Part shown: positions 18,539 to 61,956 of the stretch, piece by piece | Position numbering within the stretch: position 1 is the first letter of the stretch | Layout: each line of letters opens with the position of its first letter | Source: Syntrophaceae bacterium UBA2280 | GTDB lineage: Bacteria; Desulfobacterota; Syntrophia; Syntrophales; Smithellaceae | Reading direction: 5' to 3' | Length of the DNA: 64,000 nt | Assembly (NCBI GenBank): GCA_002347685.1 | Contig: DDWS01000026.1 | Location: 26,995 to 90,994, forward strand | Position numbers and translations under genes: made by a program | Notes under the pieces: generated by a model | The model's input: the letters and a program-made list of their open reading frames with translations, nothing else | What the model was told of the DNA's origin: nothing | Databases searched by the model: none

Positions 18539-18547
18539 TATTATCTT

Positions 18548-28996: not shown

Positions 28997-29029
28997 TAAA
29001 TTAACTTTGGAACAACAACTTGCTGAAGC

Positions 29030-34426: not shown

Positions 34427-34519
<93 letters not shown>

Positions 34520-40990: not shown

Positions 40991-41090
40991 CGGTTGTTGT
41001 ATTTTTTTGGCGAAAAAACATTGACTCCATAATATTTCTATAATATGAATGCGAGTCATTTTCATAATATAATGAAGGAGATTCTGATAG

Positions 41091-41639: not shown

Positions 41640-41652
41640 GAGGAAAATTCAT

Positions 41653-41931: not shown

Positions 41932-41933
41932 AC

Positions 41934-44062: not shown

Positions 44063-44094
44063 AAACCCGTAAAGAATACCGAGGTGAGGCAAGC

Positions 44095-44580
44095 ATGAAA
44101 AAAACCGCGAATTTTACAGCAAAAACCAAGGCAATTGTCAAAAAACACGGGGGCGACAGAAGCGCGCTCATCGCCGTGTTGCAGGATATTCAGGAAACAT
44201 TCAATTATCTCCCCAAAGAGGCTATGAACACGGTCAGCACCATGATGGGAATCCCGGCCAGTCGTGTTTACGAAGTCGCTACTTTTTACAACGCCTTCAG
44301 CCTGAATCCGCGAGGGAAACACATTGTGAAAATCTGTGTGGGCACAGCCTGTCACGTCCGCGGTGCATCGGCCATACAGGACAAATTCGAGCAGAAGCTG
44401 CTTATAAAACCGGGCGAAACGAATCAGGATCAGCAGTTCACTCTGGAACTAGTCAATTGTGTGGGTGCCTGCGCGCTCGGTCCCGTAGTCGTCATCGATA
44501 CGGAATATCACGGGCAGATGACGATGAATAAGGTGGATAAAATCATCAATGAGATAAACAAAGAGGGGGCGCAGCAATGA
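44095..44580 (+). CDS. NuoE/HydC-like [2Fe-2S] thioredoxin-fold subunit
   Basis: [10 protein letters not shown]...CVGACALGP cluster ligands. Confidence 0.85.
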
Positions 44581-46424: not shown

Positions 46425-46439
46425 GGGGTAGATGAAACC

Positions 46440-47153
46440 ATGATAAATATGATCATTGACGGAAAAAACGTAACAGCGCCCAAAGACACTATGCTTCTGG
46501 AGGCCATCCGCGGCGCGGGGATTTCGGTACCCACCCTGTGCGCGCATGAATCCGTATCGCGCTCCGGCGCCTGTCGCCTGTGCGTGGTGGAAATTAAAAA
46601 GGGCAACCGGACGCGAATTGTCACATCCTGCCTGTATGGCGTGGAAGAAGGGCTGATCGTCAACACGAAAAGCGACCGCGTAAAAAACGTACGGCGGCTG
46701 GTCATGGAGCTTCTGCTCGCACGCTGCCCCGAATCCGACCTGCTTCAGAAAATGGCCAAGGAGATGGGCATTGAGGCCCAGCCCCGATTTACGCCGGATA
46801 CCGACAAGGGCACCTGTATTTTATGCCGTTCGTGCGTTCGGGTCTGCGAAGAGGTCGTGGGTGTCAGCGCCATCGGGCTTTTTGCCCGCGGCTCTCGCAA
46901 GACGGTGGGAACGCCATTTATGGAACAATCCGACGCCTGCATCGGTTGCGGCGCGTGCGTCTATGTCTGCCCCACGAACCACATCGTCATGACATCGACC
47001 GGCGAAAAGCGGAAAATCTGGGGGCGCAATTTCAAAATGCAGGCCTGTTCCAAATGCGGCAAGTTTTTCGCCCCGGTAGATCAATTAAAGTTCATCAGCA
47101 AAAAAACCGGAACCTCCATGGAGGATCTTGCCGTCTGCACAGAATGCAGATAG
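46440..47153 (+). CDS. NuoG/HydA N-terminal-like FeS protein (2Fe-2S plus 4Fe-4S domains, no catalytic domain)
   Basis: CAHESVSRSGACRLC, CILCRSCVRVCEE, CIGCGACVYVCP. At 237 aa it has no H-cluster or molybdopterin domain. Confidence 0.8.
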   Translation: MINMIIDGKNVTAPKDTMLLEAIRGAGISVPTLCAHESVSRSGACRLCVVEIKKGNRTRIVTSCLYGVEEGLIVNTKSDRVKNVRRLVMELLLARCPESDLLQKMAKEMGIEAQPRFTPDTDKGTCILCRSCVRVCEEVVGVSAIGLFARGSRKTVGTPFMEQSDACIGCGACVYVCPTNHIVMTSTGEKRKIWGRNFKMQACSKCGKFFAPVDQLKFISKKTGTSMEDLAVCTECR

Positions 47154-47226: not shown

Positions 47227-47269
47227 ATCCGGAAAGGGGCATCCTGAACGCCCCTTTCCGGATTTTTTT
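47227..47269. terminator. rho-independent terminator between convergent operons
   Basis: ATCCGGAAAGGGGC-loop-GCCCCTTTCCGGAT followed by TTTTTTT. Confidence 0.8.
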
Positions 47270-47328: not shown

Positions 47329-48966
47329 CTAGCACGGATCGACAAACGTATGACCTGCCTCATCGGGTTTTCTTGCCGGTACCGATTTGAGACCCTGCAG
47401 AATCCATTTCCGGGTATCGGCCGGATCGATGACCGCGTCGATTTCAAGATAAGCGCCCATGTTGATGGCTTTACCCCGTTGATACATGTCGGCGACCAGT
47501 TTTTCGTAGAGCGCTTCTCTTTCCTGCGGATCCGCAATGGCCTCGAGTTCCTTTTTGAAACCGGCCTTGACCGCCCCTTCGAGGCCCATCGCCCCGAATT
47601 CTCCAGTCGGCCATGCGGCGGTGAAGAATGATTCGTGGAATCCTCCTCTGGCCATCGCCATGGCGCCCAGCCCGTACCCCCTGCGCAGAAAGACTGTGAA
47701 ATAGGGAACCGTGATGTGCGAGCCGACAACGAACATGCGGCAGACATGGCGAACCTGCGCCCTTTTTTCGATTTCCGGTCCGACCATAAATCCCGGGGTA
47801 TCGCACAAAGAAAGAATCGGCAGGCCGTGCGCGTTGCAGATCTGCATTAAACGCGCCACCTTGTCCGCGCCCTCCGCCTCAATCGCCCCCGCCATGTGCA
47901 TCGGGTTGTTGGCGATGAAACCGAGCGGACGGCCCTCGATCCGCATAAATCCGGTGACCATTCCCGGCCCGAATTTGGGTTTGAGCTCCAGAAATGATCC
48001 CGTATCAGCCAGCGTTTTGATCACATTTCTGACATTGTAAGCGCGTTTCCGGTTTTCGGGAATCAGGTTGCGCAAGCGAAGCTGATCGGCGGCTTCCCAT
48101 CCGGGAGTGGTTCCCTGGAAATAGGAAAGGTACTGCCTGGCGACAGCGACCGCTTCCTGATCATCGGCCACTTCGATATCCACGACGCCGCTTTGCGTTT
48201 GAACGTCGATCGGTCCGACCTCTTCGGGTTTGAAAACGCCGAGTCCGCCGCCTTCGATCATTACGGGTCCGCCCATGCCGATATTGGAATCGCTTGTCGC
48301 AATGATGACATCGCAGCAGCCCAGCAGGGCGGCATTCCCCGCAAAACAGGGACCTGTCACGATGCCGATCATGGGAACCGCGCCGCTTAGCCTGGCAAAT
48401 GAACCGAAAGTGGACAGGTCCAGGCCTGCGATCATGACCCCCATGGCATCCACATCTCCGGGCCTGCCGCCTCCGCCTTCCGCGAAGAAAACCAGCGGCA
48501 GTCTCTGCTCGTGCGCCAGCTTCAGCATGCGATCGATTTTTTTATGATTGAAAAATCCCTGGGTGCCGGCCAAAACGGTATAGTCATAAGCCATGAACAT
48601 ACAGCGGGCTTTATCGTCAGCAAACCAGGAACGGTTGACCGAGCCGATCCCTGTGATCAGACCGTCCGTCGGAGTCTTCAAGATGAGATCCTCTTCGGAA
48701 CGCCGCCCGCGCTGCGCGGCAATCGCCAGAGCGCCATATTCAATGAAACTCCCTTCATCGCACAGCTCGGTGATGTACGCGCGAGCCGTACGCTGGTTTT
48801 TCTGCTGCCTTCGCGCCACCGCGTCGGGACGGTTCTCGTCAAGGCAAAATGCATGTCGGCGTATCACCTCGGCCAGGTCGGGTCGAATCGGATCGGCAGT
48901 GGCCGCTTTGTCATCGGAAGGCGATATTTTTTCGTTGTCGGATGTCATCGTTTCTTTATGTTTCAT
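47329..48966 (-). CDS. acyl-CoA carboxyltransferase (PccB / MmdA / GcdA family)
   Basis: Two carboxyl-transferase domains (GGGRPGD, MGGPVMIEGGG, GFIANNPMHMAGA). Start trimmed to MKHKETM (GGAG RBS). Substrate cannot be resolved from the sequence. Confidence 0.8.
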   Translation of the reverse strand: MKHKETMTSDNEKISPSDDKAATADPIRPDLAEVIRRHAFCLDENRPDAVARRQQKNQRTARAYITELCDEGSFIEYGALAIAAQRGRRSEEDLILKTPTDGLITGIGSVNRSWFADDKARCMFMAYDYTVLAGTQGFFNHKKIDRMLKLAHEQRLPLVFFAEGGGGRPGDVDAMGVMIAGLDLSTFGSFARLSGAVPMIGIVTGPCFAGNAALLGCCDVIIATSDSNIGMGGPVMIEGGGLGVFKPEEVGPIDVQTQSGVVDIEVADDQEAVAVARQYLSYFQGTTPGWEAADQLRLRNLIPENRKRAYNVRNVIKTLADTGSFLELKPKFGPGMVTGFMRIEGRPLGFIANNPMHMAGAIEAEGADKVARLMQICNAHGLPILSLCDTPGFMVGPEIEKRAQVRHVCRMFVVGSHITVPYFTVFLRRGYGLGAMAMARGGFHESFFTAAWPTGEFGAMGLEGAVKAGFKKELEAIADPQEREALYEKLVADMYQRGKAINMGAYLEIDAVIDPADTRKWILQGLKSVPARKPDEAGHTFVDPC

Positions 48967-49186
48967 AGTAAAAAAACTCCAGGGTATTTCCTTGTTATTC
49001 TGATTGAGAAAAGATGCTCCATGCCAATGCAGTGCAAAATTTCTACTATATTTACATCGATTATTCAATGGATACGACCGGCCCGCCGGAAAGCAGCCAT
49101 TGCATGATCGGATGCGGTTTCAATAATCAGATCGGGATTTGCTTTCCCGGCCGCTTGCAGCGCCCCGGCACACCCCGATCCATCCC

Positions 49187-50521
49187 TTACCGGATACCAA
49201 ATTTTTCGAAGATAAAATCCGTGTCCTCCCCGATGCGGGCGGAGACTTTTTTGACTCGAAGCGGCGTTTTCGACATCTTCCCGGTTACAGGAAGCTTGAG
49301 TCCTCCGCAGGACGGATCATCCACCTTAAAGAAGGTGTTTCGCACCTTCCAGTGTTCCACCTCCATGACTTCCATGGGACGCAGCATGCGGGTAGTCACC
49401 GGAAGACCGCCGCCGCGCCACTTTGAACGAGCGGCCTTGAGGCAGAAAGCCTGAAATTTCGTAAATATTTCATTAAAGGTCATGTTGGCCACGGCCTTTT
49501 CAATTTCACGGTTGAGCGTCTTGGCCCTTTCGATATCGTCGGTAATCCGGTCCAGAAGCGTTTTCCAGTCCTCCTCGATATGCCACAGCCCCAGAATCCG
49601 AAGAGCCGCCCTGAAATCCTGGTCCCGGAAACAGGCAATGGCCACGTAACCGTCTTTGCATTTGAAGAATCCGTACGGGCAAAGCCCGTAATCGAGCGTC
49701 CCGTAACGGGGACGCGGTTTTTTCCAGATATATCCGACGGTTGGCGGAAACCCCACGCAAGATGAATAGGAATCGGCTGTGGCCACATCGATCATTTGCC
49801 CCTGACCGGTTCGCCCTTTAAAGAAAAGGGCCATCAGGCTGCTGCACACAGCCGACACGGCGCTCGTGTATCCGGCCGTGTAGAAGCCTGCCCTGGTCGG
49901 CCAGTTGTAGGGTTCCGGATCATCGGGCAGGCCGCCGATAAGGCCTGCCATTCCTGATTCGGCCTGACTGGTGAGATCCGACCACGGCTGGGACGCCATT
50001 TCTTTTGCCTGACGAGTGTACTGGCCGTAGGGCGTGATTGCCAGATATATCAGAGACGGATTGATTTCCTTGAGCTGCCGGTAGCCGATTCCCAGACGGT
50101 CCATCAGACCGGGCTCAAAGGTTTCAATGAGCATATCCGCCTTTTTCACAAGCGCAATAAACTTTTTTTTGTCCTCTTCGTTTTGAATGTCCAGGATGAC
50201 GTTGTGCTTGTTTCTGCTCTCCATGAGATAGGGAATCCCGGTGCCTTCGACGGTTTTTCCGTAAGGTGTCATCAGGCGCGACGGATCGCCATCCGGAGGT
50301 TCTATCCTGATCACAAAAGCCCCCGCCTCGGCAAGAAGGCTCGAAGCGATAGTACCGGTAAAATTGGCATAGCTCAAGTCAAGGACAACCGTGTCGCTGA
50401 GCGCCTCCGGTTTTCCCTGCGGCGACATGATTTCGGAGATGACTTTGCTCCATTCCGAAATCCGCTTCGCGGCTTGCTTGTTTTGCATATGCCGTGAATA
50501 TACTTTTTCCTTACTCGACAT
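49187..50521 (-). CDS. family III CoA-transferase (CaiB/BaiF/Frc family), paralog 2
   Basis: VVLDLS...LLAEAGAFVIRIEPP N-terminal signature and DLTSQAESGMAG catalytic Asp region. Start trimmed to MSSKEK, overlapping the upstream stop by 11 nt. Confidence 0.8.
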   Translation of the reverse strand: MSSKEKVYSRHMQNKQAAKRISEWSKVISEIMSPQGKPEALSDTVVLDLSYANFTGTIASSLLAEAGAFVIRIEPPDGDPSRLMTPYGKTVEGTGIPYLMESRNKHNVILDIQNEEDKKKFIALVKKADMLIETFEPGLMDRLGIGYRQLKEINPSLIYLAITPYGQYTRQAKEMASQPWSDLTSQAESGMAGLIGGLPDDPEPYNWPTRAGFYTAGYTSAVSAVCSSLMALFFKGRTGQGQMIDVATADSYSSCVGFPPTVGYIWKKPRPRYGTLDYGLCPYGFFKCKDGYVAIACFRDQDFRAALRILGLWHIEEDWKTLLDRITDDIERAKTLNREIEKAVANMTFNEIFTKFQAFCLKAARSKWRGGGLPVTTRMLRPMEVMEVEHWKVRNTFFKVDDPSCGGLKLPVTGKMSKTPLRVKKVSARIGEDTDFIFEKFGIR

Positions 50522-51872
50522 CGCTTTCACCACCATAGTTGAATAATTTGTCTTCCTCAATATTGTAATACACCGGGGGCCGCTGTCCCACGCGGTAATC
50601 CCACCCCCCGACAACCTGCTCTTTTTCGAGTTTCAGAATATCTTCTTCCGATAGCCCCAAACGGGTTTTCAGGATGTAGCGATTATGATATCCGATCGGC
50701 CGTGTCAGCCATTTGACCCTTCCCGGTGTTTCACTCATCATCGCCGCGGAACCGGCCATGACCAGTTTTTGATACATCGGATCGTCAAATTCCACGACGG
50801 AACCGCGTTCTTTCCGCCACGGATCTGTGCTGATCTGGACATCATCCTGGACTTCACCCAGAGGAAAACGGCAGGACTTTCTAAGCTCGCGAAGTTCATC
50901 GGCTGAAGTTGAAGCCATCCAATCGGACACAATCCGGTTTAATTCTGAGGCGTTTTCGGGTTTACACCGGTCCAGGGATCCGGCGAAACGACTGTCCTTC
51001 ATCAGATCCTCTCTGTTGAGGACCCTGCCTAAAGCGGCGAACTGCTCATCCGTGCCGATGGAAAGGGCGAAAAAGGCACCATCCGATGTCTTGAAAATGC
51101 CCGATGGAGATGCGGTGGGATCCTGATTGCCCGTGCGGCCGATTTCTTCGCCGGTGACACTGCTGTAAGTGAAATGAAACAGGGAACGCATCAGAATTTC
51201 CGCCTGGCAGATATCCAGATACTGCCCTTCGCCCGTTTTCTCCCGATAGTTGAGCGCCATCATGATCAGCATGGCGGCGAAAAATCCCGGATAGAAATCC
51301 CCGTAGAAATCCGGGACCTTGAAATAATGTTCCGTATCGGGATATCCGGTGCTGCTGATGACGCCACTGGCTCCCTGGGCCAGCAAATCCCATCCGGGGA
51401 AAAAGCGAAAGGGTCCGGACTGTCCGAACGTGCTCAGGCTCGCATAAATAATTTTCGGATTGACGGCCCGTGTCTGGGTATAGCCGATTCCCCAGGCTTC
51501 GACAGTTCCGCTGGCGAAGTTTTCAATCACGATGTCGGACTGTTCGGCAAGCTTCAGGATAAGGTCCTTTCCCCGGGGATACTTCACGTCGATTCCGACA
51601 AAATACTTGCTGTGATTGATGAAGTGCCACATGGGGTTTGAGTGCTTCCAGTATTTCCCCCAGTAGGTGGCGCTGCGCCAGTAGTCCCCCTGGTAGGGCA
51701 CTTCGACCTTGATCACTTCAGCGCCATGTTCGGCCAGGACGTTGGCTGCCTTGGGACCGAAAATCATGTGCGACAAATCGAGCACCCGGATGCCTTTTAA
51801 CGCTTCCGACTTTTTTTCCACCTTGGTGCGGTCGAAGGCGTCGGCCATGTATGAAAAATAATCATTGTTCAT
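50511..51872 (-). CDS. family III CoA-transferase (CaiB/BaiF/Frc family), paralog 1
   Basis: LKGIRVLDLSHMIFGPKAANVLAEHGAEVIKVE signature and WDLLAQGASG catalytic Asp region. Confidence 0.85.
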   Translation of the reverse strand: MNNDYFSYMADAFDRTKVEKKSEALKGIRVLDLSHMIFGPKAANVLAEHGAEVIKVEVPYQGDYWRSATYWGKYWKHSNPMWHFINHSKYFVGIDVKYPRGKDLILKLAEQSDIVIENFASGTVEAWGIGYTQTRAVNPKIIYASLSTFGQSGPFRFFPGWDLLAQGASGVISSTGYPDTEHYFKVPDFYGDFYPGFFAAMLIMMALNYREKTGEGQYLDICQAEILMRSLFHFTYSSVTGEEIGRTGNQDPTASPSGIFKTSDGAFFALSIGTDEQFAALGRVLNREDLMKDSRFAGSLDRCKPENASELNRIVSDWMASTSADELRELRKSCRFPLGEVQDDVQISTDPWRKERGSVVEFDDPMYQKLVMAGSAAMMSETPGRVKWLTRPIGYHNRYILKTRLGLSEEDILKLEKEQVVGGWDYRVGQRPPVYYNIEEDKLFNYGGESDVE

Positions 51873-51876
51873 AGAA

Positions 51877-52581
51877 CTAGACTCCCATGTAAGCTTTCTT
51901 GATCAATTCGCTTTTAAGCAGATCCTTGCTCTTCCCATCCAGAACGATTTCTCCATCCTGCATGACGTATCCCCTGTTGCTGATTTCAAGGGCGATCTGA
52001 GCATTCTGCTCGGCGAGAAATACGGTGATGCCCTGTTTCGGCAGGATTTCGATTGCACTGTATATCTGCTGTTGAAACGCAGGGCTCAATCCAAGTGACG
52101 GTTCGTCGATCATCAGGAGCTTCGGCCGCGCCATCAATCCCCGGGCGATCACCAGCATCTGCTGCTCGCCGCCGCTCATCAGGCTGGCCCGCTGGGCACT
52201 CCGTTCCGCGAGCCTGGGAAACATTTTCGACACCTGCTCGTACATCTCGTGGCGCCCGCTCCAGGCTTTCCGGGTACTTGCCCCCATGAAAAGATTTTCT
52301 TTCACCGACAGATAAGGAAAGATTTTCCTTCCTTCGGGTATCTGAGAAATGCCCATACGCACGACGTCCTGGGGCGGCAGCTTCTCGATCGATTTTCCGA
52401 GAAACTCGATGGTGCCCGCTGTTCCATGGAGGATGGCTGAAATCGTATTGAGCAGTGTGGTCTTGCCTGCTCCGTTTGAACCCAGAAGCGAAACCAGTTC
52501 TCCTTCTTTTATGGTCAGGTTCACGCGGTGCAAAACCGGAATGACGCCGTAAGAGACGTCCAGATTTTTAATGGTAAGCAT
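51877..52581 (-). CDS. branched-chain amino acid-type ABC transporter ATP-binding protein (LivF-like)
   Basis: Walker A GSNGAGKTT, signature MSGGEQQML. Confidence 0.9.
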   Translation of the reverse strand: MLTIKNLDVSYGVIPVLHRVNLTIKEGELVSLLGSNGAGKTTLLNTISAILHGTAGTIEFLGKSIEKLPPQDVVRMGISQIPEGRKIFPYLSVKENLFMGASTRKAWSGRHEMYEQVSKMFPRLAERSAQRASLMSGGEQQMLVIARGLMARPKLLMIDEPSLGLSPAFQQQIYSAIEILPKQGITVFLAEQNAQIALEISNRGYVMQDGEIVLDGKSKDLLKSELIKKAYMGV

Positions 52582-52582
52582 G

Positions 52583-53308
52583 TCAGTGTTTACCCCCTAA
52601 ATAAGCCTCAATAATATGCGGATCTTTAACAATCTGCTCGGGCGGACCCTCGGCGATCTTTTTCCCGTACTGTAAGACGACAATGCGCTGGGCGGCCTTC
52701 ATGATGATTTTCATGACATGTTCGATCCACAGGATGGTAATGCCGAATTGTTCCTGTGCGCTCCAGATCATCTCGAGGGCCCGTTCCGATTCCACGGGAT
52801 TGAGACCCGCCATGGCTTCATCGAGCAGGAGCAGTTTTGGCGTCGTCGCCAGCGCCCGGGCCAGTTCGAGCATTCTGAGCTCATAGAGATTGAGATTGCT
52901 GGCCAGTTCATCGCGTTTGGAAAAAAGACCGACAAATTCCAGATAGTAAGACGCTTCGAGTCCCGCGTCGCCTAAACTCATGTTGGTCCGCTTCTTGCCG
53001 TTTAAAACACTCGTCACGACAGACGCCAGCGCCGTCATGGCATAAAAGGGCTGCGGAATCTGATAGGTTCTCGATACGCCCAGTTTGCAAATCTTGTCCG
53101 ATGTCATCCCGGTGATTTGAGTTCCCTCAAAATGGATCGATCCGTCAGAGGGCTGATAAAGTCCGCAGATGATATTCATCATCGTTGTTTTTCCCGCGCC
53201 GTTGGGACCGATCAGCCCGACAACTTCATTTTTGCCCACGGAAAAGCTGACATCATCGAGCGCCCGAAGGCCGCCGAAACTAATACCTACATTCTTGATT
53301 TCTATCAC
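52583..53308 (-). CDS. branched-chain amino acid-type ABC transporter ATP-binding protein (LivG-like)
   Basis: Walker A GPNGAGKTT and LivG-type C-terminus. Confidence 0.9.
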   Translation of the reverse strand: MIEIKNVGISFGGLRALDDVSFSVGKNEVVGLIGPNGAGKTTMMNIICGLYQPSDGSIHFEGTQITGMTSDKICKLGVSRTYQIPQPFYAMTALASVVTSVLNGKKRTNMSLGDAGLEASYYLEFVGLFSKRDELASNLNLYELRMLELARALATTPKLLLLDEAMAGLNPVESERALEMIWSAQEQFGITILWIEHVMKIIMKAAQRIVVLQYGKKIAEGPPEQIVKDPHIIEAYLGGKH

Positions 53309-53387
53309 GTCTTGAGCATCTCCTTTACATATGAGAACGAACCTTTGCCCGTCTGTACACGGCGGTGACGAATGGCCTCATCTCTTC

Positions 53388-54431
53388 TTATTCACGGCGT
53401 ACATGCATCTTGGGATAGTAATCCCGGGGATGTCTTTTCTTGTAGAGCCCCCAGAGCCCCTCCCCGCGGGGCAAAAGATAAATCATCGCAACCAGGACCA
53501 GCGGAAACACCCAGTGGCTGATGTGGCCAAAGCTCCGCAGGGCTTCTTCGATGATGGACACCGCATAGGCGCCGGGAACCGCACCGAAGACGGAGGCGCG
53601 TCCTCCGATGATCACGATGAAGAGCACCTTCAGCATGAACTCGAGCGGCAGGTACGTCACACCGGCGAAGGATCGGAAGGTATGGACAATAAACCATCCT
53701 ACAATGCCGGTGAGAATGGAGGGAACCACATAGTAGATCACCTTATAAAAGCTGACATTGATGCCCATCATCCGCGCCACATTTTCATTTTCATTGATCG
53801 CCGCCAGTGAAACGCCGAACCGGGATTTGGTGATCTTATGGGCCCCCAACAGGTACAGGAGCATTAAAAACAGCGACAGATAATAATAGGACAGGTAATT
53901 CCACTTGACCCGGCCCAGATCGAAAAGGGGACTCATCCCGAAAAGACCCACCTCGCCTCTGAAGATATCACCGAACTGGTAGGTCAAATCAAGAAAGGCC
54001 AGGGGCAAAATCAGGGTGATGAGTGAAAAATAAAGCCCGCGGGCGATCCAGGTGATCGGACTGAGCATCAGGGCAACCGACCCGCAGACAAAAATGGTCC
54101 CCAGAAGCGTGAAGAAAGGGTTCCAGCCGAAAGAAAGGTTCAAAAGCGCCGCCGTGTACCCCCCGATTCCCAGGTAAAACTGGGGTCCGAAATTCACCCG
54201 GGCCGTTCCAAGAATCTGCAGGCTCAAGGGGATGGCGAGGGCGGCCAGGAGATTGGCCGTGGTGAGCATCGTCAGCAGATGCGGGTATGAAAAAAAGAAC
54301 AACGGCAATATCAGCAGAAACGCCACACCGAAAGTCGGATTCCGCCAGTAGCGGGGCTCTATGCACCACTCATATTTCTGCGTTCCCCATCTGAGCAAAA
54401 CGCGATCCCGTTTCAGATCAACACTTACCAT
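53388..54431 (-). CDS. ABC transporter permease (LivM-like)
   Basis: Polytopic membrane protein of the LivM family. Overlaps the livH-like stop. Confidence 0.85.
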   Translation of the reverse strand: MVSVDLKRDRVLLRWGTQKYEWCIEPRYWRNPTFGVAFLLILPLFFFSYPHLLTMLTTANLLAALAIPLSLQILGTARVNFGPQFYLGIGGYTAALLNLSFGWNPFFTLLGTIFVCGSVALMLSPITWIARGLYFSLITLILPLAFLDLTYQFGDIFRGEVGLFGMSPLFDLGRVKWNYLSYYYLSLFLMLLYLLGAHKITKSRFGVSLAAINENENVARMMGINVSFYKVIYYVVPSILTGIVGWFIVHTFRSFAGVTYLPLEFMLKVLFIVIIGGRASVFGAVPGAYAVSIIEEALRSFGHISHWVFPLVLVAMIYLLPRGEGLWGLYKKRHPRDYYPKMHVRRE

Positions 54432-55315
54432 ATCGTTTCTCCCTCCACTATTCCGCCCCGTTTAACAATGAGGAATACAAGTGTTACAAAGAGCGCCGCG
54501 AAACTCATGAATCGTGGAGCCAGTAAAAAGCTTGTCGAAAAATGCACAAAGGCAATCAGGTACGAGGCAATGATGTTGCCTTTGAGATTGCCCAGCCCTC
54601 CCAGAATGGCGATCAACAGCGCCGTAATCAGAAGCGGTTGACCCATGTGCGGATCAATACTCCAGAAGGGCGCGATCATGATCACGCACAGGGAAGGCGG
54701 GATCACAGCCAGAATCATGGCGAGGTAATACATGTTGTTCACGGAGGCCCCCATAAGCCTGGCGGCGTTTAAATCCTGACTCATCGCCCTGATAATCAGG
54801 CCGATTCTGGTTTTCATGAACATGAAAATAAAGAGCGCCGTCACGACAATGCCGACGATCGCCGCGGCGATCATCTGATAGGACACATTGACGACACCGA
54901 TGGTCGCAACCCCCTGAAACAACGTCGTCGGAAGGTTGACTCCCGCCGTCACGGGATACAACCAGTTCACGAAATGACTGGCGGCAAGAAACAGAAGAAT
55001 GGAAACCACCAGAAGGTTCTCCTCTTCATCCAGATATCTTTGAAAGACCCCCTTGTAAAAGACGACGACAGCGATGAATATCTGTAAAAGCAGCATGAGG
55101 ATGATGCTTGGAATCAGCCCCAGGTTCATATCGGACAGGAAGAACCACAAACCATAGGCGGCCAATACAAAAGTGATGCCGTATCCGAGGTGAAAAATGC
55201 GCAATACGCCGCAAATCAATGAAAAACCTATGGAAATCAGAAGATAGATCGATCCCCATATAACCGTGTAGATCAGAATGTTCTCAATTACAGCAACCAT
55301 GTCATAATCTCTCAT
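54425..55315 (-). CDS. ABC transporter permease (LivH-like)
   Basis: Polytopic membrane protein of the LivH family. Confidence 0.85.
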   Translation of the reverse strand: MRDYDMVAVIENILIYTVIWGSIYLLISIGFSLICGVLRIFHLGYGITFVLAAYGLWFFLSDMNLGLIPSIILMLLLQIFIAVVVFYKGVFQRYLDEEENLLVVSILLFLAASHFVNWLYPVTAGVNLPTTLFQGVATIGVVNVSYQMIAAAIVGIVVTALFIFMFMKTRIGLIIRAMSQDLNAARLMGASVNNMYYLAMILAVIPPSLCVIMIAPFWSIDPHMGQPLLITALLIAILGGLGNLKGNIIASYLIAFVHFSTSFLLAPRFMSFAALFVTLVFLIVKRGGIVEGETIW

Positions 55316-55393
55316 TGGGGGGGCGCCCGTTGAGGGCGCCCCCTGTTGTTTATTTCCGCTGCTACTTCGTACCGGGGCAAACGGATCGGGAGC

Positions 55394-56656
55394 TTACTTT
55401 CTCAATTTCGCCGGTGACATGAATTTTCCGGTGGCGATGTTTTTGGGATAAATCGGCACCATTTTCCCGTCCTGCCATTGAACGATGGGCGTCACGTATG
55501 CCGGATAGGGGAGATTATGATGGTTCTTGGCATCCCATCCGATGGTTCCGAGAACCGCCGTTTCTTTCACATTTTCAAGCTCATGGATGACTTTTTCAAT
55601 GTCCTTGGTGTCGCCTGCCTGCTGAAGGGCTTTCCTGTAGCCGAAAAGCGTGTCATATGTGGTGTGTGATCCGAAAATAGGCCCCACCTTGTATTTCTCA
55701 ATCATGTTGTCCATGAAGGGAATTGTTTTTTCAGTGATGGGAACCTTGACAAAGGACGAACCGATGCTTCCGCCGGCGATCATGCCGTCGGTCATTTTCC
55801 AGGCCATCGGCATGCCGGCAATTCCGCCCCAGAAGAACCATGGGATGTCGCGGGCGCTGGATTGAGCCCACTGCTTGATAAAGGAAGCCTGATCGATATA
55901 TCCCATGACGCCGTCGATGGCATCGGCGCCTGATTTCGTGATATCATCAAACAGGGTGCTGAACACTTTCTGATCCAGTGATATCGTCGCTTCATAGACG
56001 ACGTCAAAACCCTTGCTCTTATAAATATCCTTGAGGCTGGGTGAAACTCCCGGGATACCCCGACGGATGGGCTGGGTCCATGCCATGTCTTCATACAGCA
56101 AGGCGATTTTCTTTGAGCCGATGTAATTTTTATGGAAATCGGGCAGAATTTGTCCACCAAGAATCTGGAGGTAATGGGTGGCTACGAAATAATAGGTATG
56201 GAAGGCGAATTTGTACCGGTCATAGTTATCCCGCACAAGATGCCAGATATCGTCGGTTCCGCCAATGGTGCAAAACATGATGTGCGGGAATTCACGGAAA
56301 AGCTCAGCGCCGATCTGGGCTCCCGCCACGCCCATTTCAACCTTCTCAGCCACAACCACGGCATCCACCCGGTTGTGCATAACCAGTTTCTTATACACCT
56401 CGATGCCTTTGGGGATTTCTCCCTTGGTGTCTTCCGAAATCAACTCCACCGGACGCCCCAGAATGCCTCCGGACGCGTTCATCTCTTCAACCGCCAGCTT
56501 TGCCGCCGCCTGAGCGCTCAGCGAGAAAGGTGCTGAGAGATTACCCATAAAGCCGATCTTGATTGGTTTACCCTTCTGTGCCATCGCCGGTGAAATCCCC
56601 AGCGTCAGGCCAAGAACAACTGCGAGAACGATGAAAAAAATGCGTGCTTTGTTCAT
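55394..56656 (-). CDS. ABC transporter substrate-binding protein (type 1 PBP, LivK-like)
   Basis: Signal peptide ending AMAQ and IKIGFMGNLSAPF. Ligand not inferable. Confidence 0.85.
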   Translation of the reverse strand: MNKARIFFIVLAVVLGLTLGISPAMAQKGKPIKIGFMGNLSAPFSLSAQAAAKLAVEEMNASGGILGRPVELISEDTKGEIPKGIEVYKKLVMHNRVDAVVVAEKVEMGVAGAQIGAELFREFPHIMFCTIGGTDDIWHLVRDNYDRYKFAFHTYYFVATHYLQILGGQILPDFHKNYIGSKKIALLYEDMAWTQPIRRGIPGVSPSLKDIYKSKGFDVVYEATISLDQKVFSTLFDDITKSGADAIDGVMGYIDQASFIKQWAQSSARDIPWFFWGGIAGMPMAWKMTDGMIAGGSIGSSFVKVPITEKTIPFMDNMIEKYKVGPIFGSHTTYDTLFGYRKALQQAGDTKDIEKVIHELENVKETAVLGTIGWDAKNHHNLPYPAYVTPIVQWQDGKMVPIYPKNIATGKFMSPAKLRK

Positions 56657-56697
56657 GTGATCCTCCTTTTTAAATGACGATAAACTTCAAATTCTTA

Positions 56698-56712
56698 GCA
56701 ACCATTGTGCCA
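56698..56712 (-). promoter_or_regulatory. sigma-54 (-24/-12) promoter of the liv-like / CoA-transferase operon
   Basis: The minus strand reads TGGCAC-AATGG-TTGC, an exact consensus match, about 40 nt upstream of the SBP ATG. Confidence 0.8.
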
Positions 56713-56788: not shown

Positions 56789-56802
56789 AACGATATATCG
56801 TT
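56789..56802. promoter_or_regulatory. candidate enhancer (UAS) palindrome AACGATATATCGTT
   Basis: Perfect 14-bp palindrome centred about 85 bp upstream of the -24 element. The 14-mer ACGATATATCGTTA is repeated at 60371. Confidence 0.55.
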
Positions 56803-56854: not shown

Positions 56855-59800
56855 TCAGTCGGCATCAGTATCTCCGGTCAGATAGCTCGCTTTTCGCGAT
56901 ATACCCAGCTTCTTCATTCGCGAAAAGAGTGTATTGGGATGAATGTCGAGAATTTCTGCTGCGCCACCCTGACCCGTTACCTTGCCGCCCGTTGCCCTGA
57001 GAACTTCCAGAATATGGTTTAGCTCGTTTTCCCTGAGGCTCATATGGGCATCATGAGATAAAGAATGCCTGCTGGCCAGTTCCGGCACCCGATAAAAGGG
57101 GCCGTTGCTCAATATCACCCCTCTCTCGATGACATTTTCAAGCTCCCTGACGTTTCCCGGCCAGTCATAGGACATGAGTTTTTCCATTTCCGGCGGTGAA
57201 ATTTTGTCCAGGGGCTTATTGCACTTATTCGCGTAGAGCCCCAGAAAATACCGGGCGAGAAGCGGCACGTCTTCTTTTCTGTCCCGGAGACTGGGAACAT
57301 GAATGGGAAACACATTGAGGCGATAATAGAGATCCCTGCGGAAACGGCCCTTTTTTACTTCCTGTTCCAGATTCCGGTTCGTGGCGGCCAGAAGACGAAA
57401 ATCCGACTGAATGATGACGTCGCCGCCGACCCGCACGAATTCCCGGCTTTGCAAAACCCGCAGGAGCTTGACCTGGATATCCATGGAAATATCCCCGATT
57501 TCGTCGAGGAAGATAGTTCCCCCGTTGGCAAGCTCGAATCGCCCGATGTGGCGCGCCGTCGCTCCGGTAAAAGCCCCCTTTTCATGGCCAAAAAGTTCAC
57601 TGGAAATCAGACTCTCAGAAAGAGCGCTACAGTCGACCCGGATAAAAGGCTTCTCCGCCCGGTGGCTGTGATGATGGATCGATCGGGCTACCAGCTCCTT
57701 GCCGACGCCTGTCTCGCCCAGAATCAAAACCGTCGCATCCGTCTGGGCAACCTGTTCTGCCTGGCTGAACACTTTCTTGATGGCCGGACTTTGACCCACG
57801 AAATCCTCGAAATGAATGGTTTCGAGGTATTCTTTCTCATAATGCTCTTTTTCAAGTTGCTGTTTTTCATACAGGTTTTGCAGGGCTTCCCAAGCTTCCG
57901 CGTTATCCATGGCAATAGCGGCCTGGGTGGCAAAGTAGTTGAGAATTTCCAGATCCGACTCCTTAAAAGCGCTGCGAAACAGCCGGTTGTCGTGATACAA
58001 AACGCCGGTTACTTTATTGCGCATTTTAAGAGGAACGCAGATACAAGACCGAATGGCGCCTCCGCCGGTGGCTTGATCGGAATTCCGGTGGTCGAGTTCC
58101 ATGATGTGTCCCTTGCCTGTCCTGGCCGTTTTTTCGATCAGCCTCATGGACCTGTCAAAATGGGGCACGGTGACATCTTCAGACGTGAGATTTTTCGCAG
58201 CCTTTAGAATGACTGTCTCGGCTCTTTCCCCTTCCAGAACGAAAATGGCACCCCGCTCGGCGCCGGTTATCCTGTTGATGGCGGAAATGATGCGCCTGGA
58301 AAGCTCCCTGTAATCCCGTATTGTGGTCAGCTCCTGGCTTAACCGCAATATTTCATCGAGCAGGTTTCTCCCGTAGCGCAGATCCTTCACAAGCGGCCTG
58401 ATGTCGCCGGGAACCAGAACCTCGTTGAAAGCATAGAGCGTCCGTGCCGCCGGTTCGGCGTACTCGATGTATTCTTTCTCGCTGCCCATCCGCAGATATT
58501 CCCTGGCCACCTCCAGCTTCGACTTGGCCAGTTCAATCTGATGCCCGCAGGTTTCCAGGTCTGCCATGGATTGCTTGAGGGTTTGCAGAATGTCCCTGCT
58601 TGAATGGCCCGAATTCCGCATCATCAGCGCCTTATGCCGGAAGGCAACGCCCTTCATGAAAAGATTACCGCTCTCGAGGGAATAGCGTATTTCATCGTCC
58701 AGGGACAAACCCTCCATCCGCGGGAACGATCCGTCTTCCATGTCCTTGCAGATCATCATCCACAAAGCGGTAAACTTCACGGTCATTTGGGACTGCACAC
58801 TGAGATCACAATATTCCTTCAGGTTTGATATCGCCTTGGCAGGGTCACCCGCCTGGTGATGCGCGTAGCTCAGCAAAGCCAGCGCTCCCAGCCGGGCATA
58901 AATGCTTTTGCTTTTCTTGATTTCATCCCAGGATTCTTCAATGCACGAAATGGCATCCTCGGGGCGGTGCAGCTCCAGCAGCAAATGTCCGAGGGATACT
59001 CCTGCCAAGCCGGCCATGGACAAGTTGCCAATGCTGCGGCTGCGGACTCGAATGGCATCGAGCATACCCAGGCCCTGCGAATACAAACCGGTATGGCCAA
59101 GACAGACGCCCGCCGTCAGAGCGGCCAACAGGGGCAGCCGGTTCTTTGGAAACTGGTCTTCCACTTCGGGTACGAGAGTTTCGTAAATTCGGACAACCTC
59201 TTTATAGCGGCCAGACCAGTAATGAAAAAAAATACCGAAAATCGTCGCTGATTTCTGGATGGCCGGGTCATCGATTGTTCGGGCCAACTCCCATCCCTGC
59301 CTGAAGTGGCTTAACGCAGAACTGTACCGGGAGGAAAGCCACTGGCTTTTTCCCAGATGCATTTCAAGAAAACCGATCGAACCCGAATCGCCGCAGGATT
59401 CGGCGCGGCGGATCGCTTCCCGGAGGATCGCGATGACGCGGTTCGGATTATCACTGTCCGTGGAAACCTTCGCATACTCAAGGGTCGCTTCAATGAAGAG
59501 ACGGTCTGCTTCAGGCGTCGCAAGTTGCCTGAGGTCATCGATGGCCTTGTCGTAATAAAGCCTCGCTTCCTCATCCCTGAACTGCCTGCGGTGAATGTTG
59601 CCGTTTTCAATCAGAAGGCGGCATCCGGCATCATCATTGGAAATATGCAGCAGATGCCGGGCAACCTGTCTTGTTTTTTTTGAGTCTTCGGAGAGATCTC
59701 CGAGAAGCAGCCTGGATATATTCCGATGAAGGGATTCTCTGTCGGCGGGCGGGATGGCCGACACCAGCTTGTTTTGTTCTGCAGCATCAATGAAGGAAAA

Positions 59801-60019
59801 ATCCGTCAGGTTATTCCGGGAAAGCCAGCCTTTTTCAACACCGGATTCCAATGCGGCAAAAATGACCGACGCCTTCTTCCCCGTCAGTTCCTGCAACCAA
59901 TCGATGTTGAATTCACCCTCAAACAGAGCGGCCCGGGACAAAACAAACAGGCGCCCTTGAAAATCCTCTTCAGAGAGATGACCGTTTATAATCATTGATT
60001 CCCTCATTGCCTGCAGCAC
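56855..60019 (-). CDS. sigma-54-dependent transcriptional activator with a large N-terminal helical-repeat region and a GAF domain (no receiver domain)
   Basis: 1054 aa. Roughly the first 550 aa are unassigned and helical. A GAF-like region follows ([22 protein letters not shown]...). AAA+ Walker [15 protein letters not shown] loop, C-terminal Fis-type HTH ([21 protein letters not shown]). Confidence 0.85.
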
Positions 60020-60370
60020 TCAAACGACTGCATTCAACCAAAAATACCTGCGGTTCTTTCGTAAACCCCCGCTTGGCAAATTCCTAAACGGCTGTACAGA
60101 AAAGGGGCCGTCTGATCGGGTTGATCTTTGCTTTCTTCCCCTGCATCACGATTTCTCGTCTGCAGCACACGATTTGACACTATGGCACAGGCTCCAATTC
60201 CTTACATCAACCGGATAGCAGATTCTTCGCCACCCGGTTTGAAGCACATTATCATATCATCGGCGCAATTCCAAGACTTCCCTGGAAGCCGTTTTTACCC
60301 ATCCTCCCTATGACGCTTATTTCTGAATGAACCCAACCCGGGTAATAAAATACGACATGGGGGTTATTTT

Positions 60371-60419
60371 ACGATATATCGTTACCTCTTTTCAGAAAGC
60401 ACGATGCCCTGGATCGTGC
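60371..60419. promoter_or_regulatory. two candidate enhancer palindromes: ACGATATATCGT and GCACGAT-N7-ATCGTGC
   Basis: Positions 60371-60382 and 60399-60419, which is 45-95 bp upstream of the -24 element of the decarboxylase-beta promoter. Confidence 0.55.
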
Positions 60420-60463: not shown

Positions 60464-60479
60464 TGGCATAGTGATTGCA
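60464..60479 (+). promoter_or_regulatory. sigma-54 (-24/-12) promoter of the decarboxylase beta-subunit operon
   Basis: TGGCAT-AGTGA-TTGCA. The track ORF start at 60475 lies inside this promoter and is therefore rejected. Confidence 0.75.
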
Positions 60480-60564
60480 CAGTACACTACTTTATCATAA
60501 ATATTTCATACATATAACCGCAATTAATGTATTTTGCGATGCTATGTATAAGGAGACTCAATCA

Positions 60565-61818
60565 ATGACCATAGATTCACTGGTGAACATTTTTCAGGGG
60601 GTGGCGACGCTTGCGGAATCCTTTTCACACAACCCCACTGTCGCCTTCGTTCGTATCGGTCTGATCTTCCTGGGATTTCTTTTGATCTACCTGGGTAAAA
60701 AAGGCATTCTGGAGCCGCTTCTGATGGTTCCGATGGGATTGGGCATGGCGACGGTCAATGCGGCCATTATGTTCTTCGATCCCTTGAATCTGCACGGCGG
60801 CATGGGCACGCTCTTTGTGGAAGCGCAGGCCGGCGCCACGGCGGACGCCGTGAAAAATGCCGCGGAAGTCATGATGATGCTGCAGATCAACTGGCTCCAG
60901 CCGATCTATACGTTCACCTTCAGCAACGGTTTGATCGCCTGCCTGATTTTCATGGGCATCGGGTCCCTGCTGGATGTGGGCTACGTCATGGCCAAACCTT
61001 TCCAGAGCATGACCATCGCGCTTTTCGCAGAACTGGGAACGATTGTCGTGTTCCCCGTCGCCCAGCTTTTCGGTTACTCGCCGCAGCAGGCAGCCGCCAT
61101 CGCCGTAGTTGGAGGGGCGGACGGGCCGATGGTCTTGTTCACCTCGCTGAGGCTGGCCCCCGAACTCTTTGTACCGATTGCGATCATCGCCTATCTCTAC
61201 CTGGGGTTCGCCTACGGCGCCTACCCCTATCTCATCCGGGCCATGGTGCCGAAGAAACTCCTCGCGATCAAACCGCCGCCGGCCAGGAAAAAAAGGGAAA
61301 TCACCTCCGGCGAAAAAATGCTCTTCGCGGTCGTTGCCTGTGTTTTCCTGTCGTTTCTGCTGCCTGTTGCCGCCCCGCTGATCTTTTCCTTGTTTTTCGG
61401 TGTGGTCATCCGGGAATCAGGCGTGAAGGAGTTCGTTGATCTTCTTCAGGGTCCGGTCCTGTACCTGTCGACCATGTTTCTGGGGCTGATGCTGGGCGTG
61501 CTTTGCGACGTCAATACCATCATGGATCCGAAAGTGCTGCCGCTTCTGCTTTTGGGAATTCTGGCGCTTCTGATTTCGGGTATCGGCGGTATTTTCGGGG
61601 GGTATTTCATGTATGTGGTAACGCGGGGCAAGTTCAACCCCGCCGTCGGCATTGCGGGCGTGAGCTGCACGCCCACCACCTCCAAAGTCGCGCAGAAGGT
61701 GGTTTCGAAAGCCAACCGAACCGCCATCATTCTGCCGGACGCCCTCGGCGCGAATGTCAGCGGCGTGATCACAACGGCGATCATCGCCGGAATATTCTGC
61801 AGCCTGCTGGCCAGATAA
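60565..61818 (+). CDS. sodium ion-translocating decarboxylase beta subunit (OadB/GcdB/MmdB family)
   Basis: Polytopic membrane protein with an OadB-type N-terminus (YLGKKGILEPLLMVPMGLGMATVN). Start set to MTIDSL after an AAGGAG RBS. Confidence 0.85.
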   Translation: MTIDSLVNIFQGVATLAESFSHNPTVAFVRIGLIFLGFLLIYLGKKGILEPLLMVPMGLGMATVNAAIMFFDPLNLHGGMGTLFVEAQAGATADAVKNAAEVMMMLQINWLQPIYTFTFSNGLIACLIFMGIGSLLDVGYVMAKPFQSMTIALFAELGTIVVFPVAQLFGYSPQQAAAIAVVGGADGPMVLFTSLRLAPELFVPIAIIAYLYLGFAYGAYPYLIRAMVPKKLLAIKPPPARKKREITSGEKMLFAVVACVFLSFLLPVAAPLIFSLFFGVVIRESGVKEFVDLLQGPVLYLSTMFLGLMLGVLCDVNTIMDPKVLPLLLLGILALLISGIGGIFGGYFMYVVTRGKFNPAVGIAGVSCTPTTSKVAQKVVSKANRTAIILPDALGANVSGVITTAIIAGIFCSLLAR

Positions 61819-61833
61819 TAAAGGAGAAGCAAC

Positions 61834-61956
61834 ATGACTGGATGGAATGAGGCTTTACTAACCTACGGGTTAACGATCATCATCTCGTTTTCCGTGGCGG
61901 GCATTATCTCTCTTGTGGTGAAGCTGCTGGAGACGTTCTCAAAAAACAAAAGCTGA
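61834..61956 (+). CDS. putative small single-TM subunit of the decarboxylase (OadG/GcdD-like), 40 aa, absent from the ORF track
   Basis: AAGGAG RBS. MTGWNEALLTYGLTIIISFSVAGIISLVVKLLETFSKNKS has one hydrophobic helix and sits 15 nt after the beta subunit. Confidence 0.5.
   Translation: MTGWNEALLTYGLTIIISFSVAGIISLVVKLLETFSKNKS

Follow-up and report, generated by a model that had tools for sequence, protein, structure and literature searches.

We analysed a 64,000-nt stretch of the genome of Syntrophaceae bacterium UBA2280, a member of the Smithellaceae (contig DDWS01000026.1, positions 26,995 to 90,994), referred to below as the window. A minus-strand gene string within it joins a Liv-type ATP-binding cassette (ABC) importer to two family III coenzyme A (CoA) transferases, CoAT1 and CoAT2, and to an acyl-CoA carboxyltransferase (CT). 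On the far side of an activator gene, a plus-strand operon encodes the beta subunit of a Na+-translocating decarboxylase and a 40-aa membrane peptide. Our preferred reading, to which we give a probability of about one half, is that the two operons form a sigma-54 regulon for carboxylate uptake, activation by CoA transfer, biotin-type carboxyl transfer and Na+-coupled decarboxylation. We hold the regulon with its import and CoA-transfer part to be likely; Na+-coupled decarboxylation as the fate of the CoA ester is put forward tentatively, at a little under even odds.

From the predicted promoter P1 the string reads substrate-binding protein (SBP), two permeases, two ATPases, CoAT1, CoAT2 and then the CT, as assigned with Pfam and NCBIfam (Table 1). 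With the start codons that are supported by homologue lengths, the spacings are +78, -7, +79, +1, +4 and -26 nt, followed by +220 nt to the CT gene. An earlier note, made from the letters of the window, had described gaps of 79 nt or less with several overlaps and then a 220-nt gap, which the recomputed spacings reproduce; its count of eight tightly packed genes is better given as seven packed genes (spacings -26 to +79 nt) with the CT gene set apart. The promoter it had placed at the head of the string, an exact TGGCAC-N5-TTGC (TGGCACAATGGTTGC) that lies 41 nt 5' of the SBP start codon, is upheld, as there are three exact matches in the window against 0.14 expected and none of 100 shuffles gave three. 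A motif scan finds -24 GG and -12 GC elements at canonical spacing before both operons, the second predicted promoter, P2 (TGGCATAGTGATTGC), preceding the beta-subunit gene.

The earlier note missed this second sigma-54 site, the activator gene and the palindromes upstream of the promoters. The activator gene is directly upstream of the string and is of the sigma-54 enhancer-binding type, with an open reading frame (ORF) of 1054 aa for which gene callers place the start 8 codons later, giving 1046 aa. Its product contains a TPR-rich N-terminus of ~550 aa with a weak MalT-like match, a GAF domain, an AAA+ domain in which GAFTGA can be read from the translation, and a Fis-type helix-turn-helix (HTH) domain (Pfam: Sigma54_activat 7e-72, GAF 2e-13, HTH_8, TPR), and it reaches no NCBIfam equivalog cut-off. 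A 12-bp palindrome, ACGATATATCGT, occurs exactly twice in the 64 kb and still only twice when up to one mismatch is allowed, with 0.03 copies expected. Both copies pair with the sigma-54 sites that flank the activator gene, standing 85-89 nt upstream of each; the copy at P1, whose centre is ~85 nt 5' of the -24 GG, is nested within a 14-bp palindrome, AACGATATATCGTT. The looser pattern ACGA-N4-TCGT has three occurrences in the window, all inside the two intergenic regions flanking the activator gene, and the third of these, ACGATTTCTCGT, possibly has an autoregulatory or auxiliary role. No rpoN gene was seen among the annotated ORFs of the window.

For comparison, 80 loci (numbered with an L below) were taken from GTDB species representatives by means of a profile of CoAT1 homologues. 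Activator orthologues with 66-70% identity stand beside the cassette, that is the seven genes from SBP to CoAT2, in L007, L009 and L010. Each of these three loci has a TGGCAC-N5-TTGC 5' of the SBP gene and a palindromic site further upstream, at 85 nt (L007), 200 nt (L009) and 85 nt (L010) from the GG; the palindrome is the same as that of the window in L009 and L010, while L007 carries the variant ACGAAATGTCGT. A TetR gene is found 5' of the SBP gene in 13 of the 31 activator-less loci that have enough flanking sequence. Because the loci with the activator share this set of sites and many others have TetR, sigma-54 control appears to be lineage-specific, with activator, palindrome and promoter travelling together. 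The enhancer-dependent control that had been proposed for the string is therefore both supported in its sequence signals and widened, with an adjacent activator gene and recurrence of palindrome and sigma-54 site in three relatives.

The beta-subunit gene provides the main argument for joining the two operons. Its product scores 202 bits on TIGR01109, above the cut-off of 190.6, and 452 bits on the MadB model TIGR03136, below the cut-off of 596.9; homologues are likewise 417 aa long and the closest are Smithellaceae proteins (80-93% identity). The 40-aa peptide encoded behind it has no match in Pfam or NCBIfam, and orthologues of 40-41 aa lie behind OAD_beta in L090-L093 and L097. In L090, L092 and L093 the pair adjoins MoxR, VWA and acyl-CoA dehydrogenase genes and has a TTGAC-type sigma-70 promoter, read by eye, with neither sigma-54 site nor palindrome, and comparison with these three loci shows nucleotide homology to the window starting just 16 nt before the beta ATG. 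L097 contains a copy with 98.1% nucleotide identity (window 60549-61968, L097 9985-11404) downstream of genes for a TAXI-TRAP transporter, an AMP-ligase, a thiolase and an acyl-CoA dehydrogenase, and L093 (~9985-11410) contains one with 83.5% identity in the MoxR/VWA/acyl-CoA dehydrogenase context. The P2 site is missing 5' of the orthologous beta gene in L090, L092, L093 and L097, and in each context compared the homology begins at the ribosome-binding site. Judged from these alignments, beta gene and 40-aa ORF look like a sharply bounded, promoterless 1.42-kb module that has been duplicated or moved between operons. Because the copies elsewhere lack them, the sigma-54 site and the palindrome are specific to the arrangement in the window, and because it is only here that the beta pair stands under palindrome and sigma-54 promoter, importer string and Na+-pump subunit would be co-regulated. 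The MadB-like score of the beta subunit was considered as evidence for malonate and rejected as weak, since the same beta subunit is universal in Smithellaceae and occurs in other contexts.

The seven-gene cassette is strongly conserved. In 80 of 80 loci its ABC genes, CoAT1 and CoAT2 form an unbroken same-strand block unless a contig end truncates it; most of these loci are from metagenome-assembled genomes (MAGs) of Syntrophales, Smithellaceae, Syntrophaceae, Syntrophobacteraceae and Desulfatitalea, with some Dehalococcoidia. For the CoAT1 family, 2,574 proteins reach E <= 1e-20 among the 8,000 scored, and 155 relatives occur among GTDB species representatives; in the sources these proteins carry generic names only. 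Group A (39 loci) was defined by a CoAT1 62-82% identical to that of the window and an SBP gene in first position, and group B by a CoAT1 53-59% identical and a different SBP (~30% identity) encoded behind CoAT2. An intact seven-gene cassette with the same order and overlapping genes is also present in a Korarchaeota/Thermoproteota MAG (L095 1041-8428, L096 624-7999), which points to inter-domain transfer of the whole module. The suggestion that import followed by CoA transfer is a functional unit is thus supported by the joint occurrence of the seven genes in all 80 loci and in the archaeal MAG. As a separate observation, the Methanomethyliaceae protein P0091 is 65% identical to CoAT1.

When the neighbourhood search that had been proposed for the same string was run, the seven-gene core was recovered in the 80 loci and a CT gene was found beside 22 of the 39 group-A cassettes, as a stand-alone LCC-type CT, an MmdA-type CT or, once, a full protein of biotin carboxylase (BC), biotin carboxyl carrier protein (BCCP) and CT. 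In 16 group-A loci a same-strand LCC-type CT lies 3' of CoAT2, with CT identities of 60-80% and ORF-based gaps of 5-345 nt where both ORFs could be cleanly called. An MmdA-type CT adjoins the cassette in six loci: it is downstream with the same orientation in L009, L010, L011, L022 and L030 and upstream in L040. L042, a locus of a Dehalococcoidia MAG, encodes at 43-3339 (minus strand) a 1098-aa LCC-type BC-BCCP-CT that carries the biotinylation motif ESMKM and whose gene diverges from a TetR gene and the cassette; the fused form was found in this locus only, and its CT domain shares 69% identity with the CT of the window. No CT gene was nearby in 17 of the 39 group-A loci or in any group-B locus. 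The recurring set of genes that replaces or accompanies the CT after the cassette in L018-L020, L025 and L030 was also noted: TetR, a 4-hydroxybutyryl-CoA-dehydratase-like protein of the HpaB family, enoyl-CoA hydratase, 3-hydroxyacyl-CoA dehydrogenase, a 600-aa acyl-CoA dehydrogenase and sometimes an AMP-ligase. This set may hint at the pathway that follows.

Cassette and CT of the window have different closest relatives. The cassette is closest to L007 and L009 (81% identity), while the CT is closest to Smithellaceae CTs (78-82%) and only 61-63% identical to those of L007 and L009. With a cassette like that of L007/L009 and a CT of Smithellaceae type, the adjacency of the CT seems to have survived a cassette exchange, and on these identities cassette and activator are xenologues within an otherwise Smithellaceae setting. 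Their genes have a GC content of 49-54%, compared with mostly 55-58% in the neighbours examined; this slight dip was rejected as compositional evidence for a recent transfer because it is not decisive.

CoAT1 and CoAT2 each cover the CoA_transf_3 profile in full, yet are only 28% identical to each other. The catalytic Asp is kept in 69/69 CoAT1 and 68/69 CoAT2 sequences in the orthologue alignments, and CoAT2 follows directly 3' of CoAT1 in every locus, the order never being reversed. The NCBIfam models nearest to CoAT1 are those of succinate-glutarate, succinyl-CoA:mesaconate and formyl-CoA transferases, all far under cut-off, and the pair falls into none of the named specificity groups searched (formyl-CoA, succinate-glutarate, mesaconate, carnitine, oxalate), the best score being 200 bits against a cut-off of 750. 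In a PDB search CoAT1 is nearer to BbsF (1e-42) and CoAT2 nearer to BbsE (6e-25), and the closest named relatives of the pair act on dicarboxylates, namely glutarate, mesaconate, oxalate and benzylsuccinate. By these comparisons CoAT1 and CoAT2 are a distinct, unnamed subfamily. The two proteins, encoded by adjacent, overlapping genes in fixed order, would probably form a heteromer.

The importer is complete in its five-component HAAT architecture, and its SBP is highly divergent. SBP orthologues in group-A loci are 56-77% identical, whereas every NCBIfam match of the SBP falls far under cut-off (33 bits on the LivJ/K model, cut-off 477) and its best PDB match reaches 2e-12 only. A weak hhalign alignment to LivJ keeps the carboxylate-binding Tyr202 and places the ammonium-binding Glu226 in a gap; a single-sequence AlphaFold model has a mean pLDDT of 34.9 and is unusable. 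None of the transport, CoA-transferase or CT proteins satisfies an NCBIfam model of equivalog level. The GC-rich hairpin between the SBP and first permease genes (-25.7 kcal/mol, z = -3.85) ends 3 nt before the permease ATG; it is probably an intra-operon mRNA stabiliser or attenuator and may boost SBP expression relative to the membrane components.

The CT belongs to the LCC/YCC clade rather than to the PccB/MmdA/GcdA family to which the earlier note had assigned it. It matches PDB entries 5fif (8e-191) and 4rcn (4e-188) over the full domain with ~58-60% identity, as judged by eye from the printed alignment, compared with ~1e-66 for PccB, MmdA and 12S types, 1e-14 for GcdA, and 247 bits on the mmdA model against a cut-off of 999. 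At 545 aa it equals its homologues in length, and by Pfam the chain consists of the CT domain only, without BC or BCCP domains. No sigma-54 site, palindrome or clear sigma-70 promoter was found in the spacer between CoAT2 and CT, and the spacer folds no better than its shuffles (z = -0.85). Two candidates in this spacer were rejected: a sigma-54 promoter, as the GC of TGGCATGGAGCATCT is wrongly spaced, and a riboswitch, given the fold score and the lack of any Rfam match in the region. The strong terminator previously said to end the string is a real hairpin, but its tail is weak for the string: a T7 run is found on the plus-strand side, facing the convergent ferredoxin gene, for which the hairpin is consequently the better terminator, and the minus strand has just AUGGAUUUCAU.

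Combining these elements, we propose that a ligand, either the substrate or its CoA ester, would be sensed by the GAF/TPR activator, which would bind the ACGATATATCGT palindromes and open both P1, for the importer, the two CoA-transferases and probably the CT, and P2, for the Na+-decarboxylase beta subunit and the 40-aa peptide. The importer would bring in an organic carboxylate, probably not an alpha-amino acid, and the CoAT pair would make its thioester from an existing acyl-CoA, so that activation costs no ATP. The LCC-type CT would then shift a carboxyl group between this ester and a biotin carrier whose gene lies elsewhere, and the resulting carboxybiotin would be decarboxylated by the co-induced beta subunit with export of Na+, as in Gcd, Mmd and Mad (PMC7145394). 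The whole would amount to a decarboxylase of the Gcd/Mmd kind whose alpha subunit is unusual. The likeliest class of substrate appears to be a (di)carboxylate, perhaps medium- or long-chain or substituted. The dicarboxylate-type relatives of the CoATs, the long-chain type of the CT and the ATP cost of the importer lead us to infer either a dicarboxylate or an acyl group that is bulky or long, rather than malonate fermentation.

Several points weigh against this reading. The promoters and binding sites are predictions, and the alignment of SBP with LivJ has a probability of just 69.7%. The CT gene is parted from the string by 220 nt and a hairpin and has neither a palindrome nor a sigma-54 site of its own, and CT orthologues of 80-82% identity are solitary in unrelated contexts. 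OAD_beta was found within 10 kb of no other cassette locus. A biotinyl motif was found in no window ORF of at least 60 codons (stop to stop) nor beside group-A cassettes; lacking a carrier gene in these places, the decarboxylase is seen here in incomplete form. The coupling of the cassette to an ATP-dependent carboxylase in L042 argues for carboxylation over decarboxylation, and an ATP-driven importer would be energetically awkward if a single decarboxylation were the sole gain.

An alternative keeps the regulon, the uptake and the CoA transfer and makes the CT step a carboxylation of the new acyl-CoA, driven either by ATP through BC and BCCP encoded elsewhere or by a Na+ gradient through a reversed beta subunit. 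Such a pathway would be akin to the propionyl-, crotonyl-, methylcrotonyl- or geranyl-CoA type of carboxylation, acting on an imported monocarboxylate. It agrees with the complete BC-BCCP-CT beside cassette and TetR gene in L042, with the AbfD-like dehydratase, enoyl-CoA hydratase, 3-hydroxyacyl-CoA dehydrogenase and acyl-CoA dehydrogenase genes of several loci, which fit beta-oxidation of a monocarboxylate, and with what is known of LCC-type enzymes, which as carboxylases take C2-C16 acyl-CoAs with strong preference for long chains, although their physiological role is not settled (PMC6491548). However, neither a BC nor a BCCP gene was found in the window, and the sole partner under the same predicted control is a carboxybiotin decarboxylase subunit, of a family whose subunit logic has been described and whose beta subunit works in the decarboxylating direction in characterised systems (PMC7145394). 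We consider this alternative worth keeping in mind, if unlikely. Another proposal is that the CT is a housekeeping protein, for instance the CT subunit of an acyl- or acetyl-CoA carboxylase, and a mere neighbour, the inducible unit then consisting of the importer and the two CoA-transferases only, with or without the beta subunit. The spacer before the CT with its hairpin and its lack of a palindrome and a sigma-54 site, the 17 group-A and all group-B loci without a nearby CT, and the solitary orthologues already mentioned would all be expected under this proposal, as would the conservation of the CT, which at 78-85% identity across Syntrophales among the 120 best matches exceeds that of the cassette proteins. 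Against it stand the recurrence of same-strand adjacency in 16 loci whose CT identities are 60-80%, the persistence of that adjacency despite discordant cassette and CT phylogenies, and the placement of a different CT family beside the cassette in six loci and of the fused LCC form in L042; we regard a merely neighbouring CT as quite improbable.

The HAAT family architecture of the transporter invites the further idea of a true amino-acid importer, of Liv type or for omega-amino acids, with the CoATs acting on derived hydroxy or oxo acids after the models of HadA and FldA in Stickland-type fermentations or of 4-aminobutyrate or 5-aminovalerate fermentation. Aminotransferase genes do often lie just 5' of group-B cassettes, and some group-A loci have a 4-hydroxybutyryl-CoA-dehydratase-like gene and an SDR. 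Yet group-B SBPs are just ~30% identical to that of the window, the window SBP remains remote from the LivJ/K model, and the alpha-ammonium-binding Glu has no counterpart in it, weak as that alignment is. Neither an aminotransferase, a 2-hydroxyacyl-CoA dehydratase nor an amino-acid dehydrogenase was found in the regulon by Pfam. On these grounds a true amino-acid function is unlikely, and the fermentation scheme built on it has a very low probability in our estimate. Returning to the two-operon regulon with Na+-coupled decarboxylation, a bolder extension can be formulated, which we offer as an improbable speculation. The seven-gene cassette would be a self-contained, horizontally mobile 'capture and thioesterify' module with which energy-limited anaerobes (Syntrophales, Dehalococcoidia and even Korarchaeota) import a class of (di)carboxylic acids and activate them without ATP. 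In the present Smithellaceae genome it would have been wired by a dedicated sigma-54 activator to a new Na+-pumping acyl-CoA decarboxylase with an LCC-type alpha subunit, the beta-peptide pair being a promoterless 1.4-kb plug-in unit that passes from one acid-catabolic operon to another. The acids handled might be medium- or long-chain or alkyl-substituted, e.g. alkylmalonates, alkylsuccinates or alpha,omega-dicarboxylates.

Table 1. Features of the importer/CoA-transferase string, the beta-subunit operon and their predicted control sites, in window coordinates
Feature	Coordinates	Strand	Details
Terminator hairpin	47227..47269		Bidirectional, common to convergent ferredoxin gene; -34.7 kcal/mol for 81-nt stretch, z = -5.3
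CT, stand-alone acyl-CoA carboxyltransferase, LCC/YCC clade	47329..48966	-	545 aa from MKHKE; Carboxyl_trans 3e-77
CoAT2-CT spacer	48967..49186	-	220 nt; long imperfect hairpin directly after CoAT2 stop codon
CoAT2, family III CoA-transferase	49187..50536	-	449 aa from ATG 50536, overlaps CoAT1 end; CoA_transf_3 1e-75
CoAT1, family III CoA-transferase	50511..51872	-	453 aa, catalytic Asp162; CoA_transf_3 1e-93
ABC ATPase, LivF-like	51877..52581	-	ABC_tran; LivF model 236 bits vs cut-off 441
ABC ATPase, LivG-like	52583..53308	-	ABC_tran + BCA_ABC_TP_C; LivG model 206 bits vs cut-off 362
ABC permease, LivM/UrtC-like	53388..54431	-	BPD_transp_2 7e-31
ABC permease, LivH/UrtB-like	54425..55315	-	BPD_transp_2 1.5e-22
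GC-rich hairpin, SBP/first-permease gap	55318..55344	-	10 bp, 5-nt loop, no U tract
SBP, periplasmic, HAAT/Liv-type fold	55394..56656	-	420 aa, signal peptide; Peripla_BP_6 1e-32
P1, predicted sigma-54 promoter	56698..56712	-	TGGCAC-N5-TTGC; ~30 nt leader to SBP start codon
Candidate upstream activating site 1	56790..56801		12-bp palindrome ACGATATATCGT within 14-bp palindrome AACGATATATCGTT
Activator, sigma-54 enhancer-binding type	56855..60019	-	Directly upstream of string; TPR-GAF-AAA+-HTH
Third ACGA-N4-TCGT site	60148..60159		ACGATTTCTCGT; activator/OAD_beta intergenic region
Candidate upstream activating site 2	60371..60382		ACGATATATCGT; centre ~89 nt 5' of P2 GG
P2, predicted sigma-54 promoter	60464..60478	+	TGGCAT-N5-TTGC, TGGCATAGTGATTGC; precedes OAD_beta gene
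OAD_beta, Na+-translocating decarboxylase beta subunit (carboxybiotin decarboxylase)	60565..61818	+	417 aa from MTIDS; OAD_beta 3.5e-104
40-aa single-helix membrane peptide	61834..61956	+	Own AAGGAG ribosome-binding site, behind beta gene

Genes for fumarase, a four-subunit 2-oxoacid:ferredoxin oxidoreductase and NuoE/NuoF/ferredoxin occupy 39549-47153 on the plus strand, convergent with the string. Apart from the near-identical contigs L001-L004, no cassette has them as neighbours (0 of the 80 other loci). A link of the string to these genes was therefore rejected, and the propionate/methylmalonyl-CoA route once suggested from the nearby fumarase and oxidoreductase has no positional support. 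Other observations in the window concern sigma-54 sites and biotin. A second exact sigma-54 site (30654-30668, minus strand) heads a five-gene string at 23836-30436 that encodes a 468-aa protein with weak resemblance to porins, a thiolase, an acyl-CoA dehydrogenase of 602 aa, an enoyl-CoA hydratase and an unassigned protein of 234 aa. Membership of this beta-oxidation string in the same regulon was rejected as it has no ACGATATATCGT palindrome, and for that reason it is presumably under a different activator. The third exact site (12002-12016, plus strand) precedes a Metal_resist/LTXXQ (ZraP/CpxP-like) gene in the region 8786-12569, divergent from genes for a histidine kinase with a PAS domain and for a sigma-54 activator of response-regulator type, in a ZraSR/ZraP-like arrangement. 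Biotin synthesis genes were recognised by Pfam at 15983-19270 (minus strand) and 21388-22476 (plus strand), ~25-30 kb from the CT gene and with no regulatory link seen; they comprise a BioA-like class III aminotransferase, a BioF-like class I/II aminotransferase, a BioD-like AAA_26 protein and a BioB-like radical SAM protein with BATS. A bacterial small signal recognition particle RNA lies at 36761-36858 (plus strand), just 5' of dnaX, and two long tRNA genes of ~90 nt lie at 34043-34133 and 34430-34519 (minus strand).

In the full-text literature we found no description of an ABC importer joined to twin family III CoA-transferases. The earlier inability to match the string to a named pathway is shared by us, as none was found and no equivalog model fits the string proteins. 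All of the parts come from known families, and the importer with its twin CoA-transferases is a widespread, cross-domain and uncharacterised module for uptake and activation; in the window genome, the predicted sites outline a sigma-54 regulon that is unusually easy to read and would have taken in a Na+-pump subunit. In methanogenic systems, Syntrophales, including relatives of Smithella, have a key role in the breakdown of fatty acids, alkanes and aromatics. Because these organisms live close to the thermodynamic limit, ATP-sparing capture and activation of substrates would matter to them, and identification of the module's substrate would give models of anaerobic carbon flow a further catabolic route. 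If CT and beta subunit do form a pump, the Na+-decarboxylase family would gain a fourth type of alpha subunit. A pump subunit recruited by promoter swap under a common palindrome would also make a clean, testable case of regulon evolution.

Each part of the system can be set beside a known counterpart. Catabolic sigma-54 regulons under GAF-type or ligand-sensing activators (FhlA, NifA, PrpR and AtoC types) share with the window a central AAA+ domain with GAFTGA, a Fis-type HTH and a palindromic upstream site ~85 nt from a -24/-12 promoter; the window activator differs in the long, weakly MalT-like TPR region before its GAF domain and in meeting no equivalog cut-off of NCBIfam. HAAT importers (LivJHMGF/UrtABCDE-type) likewise have five components, with Peripla_BP_6, BPD_transp_2 and LivG/LivF-like ATPases. 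The window SBP, however, is very far removed from all members that have a solved structure or a name, and its importer is invariably joined to two CoA-transferase genes. For HAAT members of Rhodopseudomonas palustris, aromatic or fatty and dicarboxylic acids are known ligands. LCC/YCC single-chain acyl-CoA carboxylases resemble the window CT over its full length, at the ~58-60% identity given above, and their complete BC-BCCP-CT form stands beside the cassette in the relative L042; in the window, by contrast, the CT is a stand-alone chain, and its apparent partner, through regulation, is a Na+-pump subunit.

Na+-translocating biotin-dependent decarboxylases (Bdc) have an acyl-CoA CT, an OAD_beta and a small single-helix peptide directly after beta; the window likewise encodes a CT and an OAD_beta, with the 40-aa peptide in the corresponding place, and its beta subunit passes TIGR01109 and is closest to the MadB model. 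Differences lie in the candidate alpha subunit, which is of LCC/YCC type and not GcdA, MmdA or OadA, in the lack of a biotin carrier gene nearby, and in the 40-aa peptide, which has neither the Ala/Pro linker nor the C-terminal part that binds alpha in OadG and GcdD. Alpha and beta are moreover in separate operons in the window, joined by common regulatory sites alone. For the CoATs, a parallel is BbsEF, the succinyl-CoA:(R)-benzylsuccinate CoA-transferase (PDB 9fn0); SmtAB of Chloroflexus is another two-subunit family III CoA-transferase. A BbsEF analogue, LssDE, also has two family III subunits and acts on limonenylsuccinate (PMC12583861). BbsEF and the window pair are alike in having two adjacent, distantly related CoA_transf_3 genes in fixed order, CoAT1 resembling BbsF and CoAT2 BbsE, and in nearest relatives that use dicarboxylates. 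The window CoATs differ in that they are only ~30% identical to any characterised enzyme and miss the equivalog cut-offs, and their locus is without a glycyl-radical synthase and the Bbs-type beta-oxidation genes. Instead, the window pair shares its operon with an ABC importer, and both of its subunits retain the catalytic Asp.

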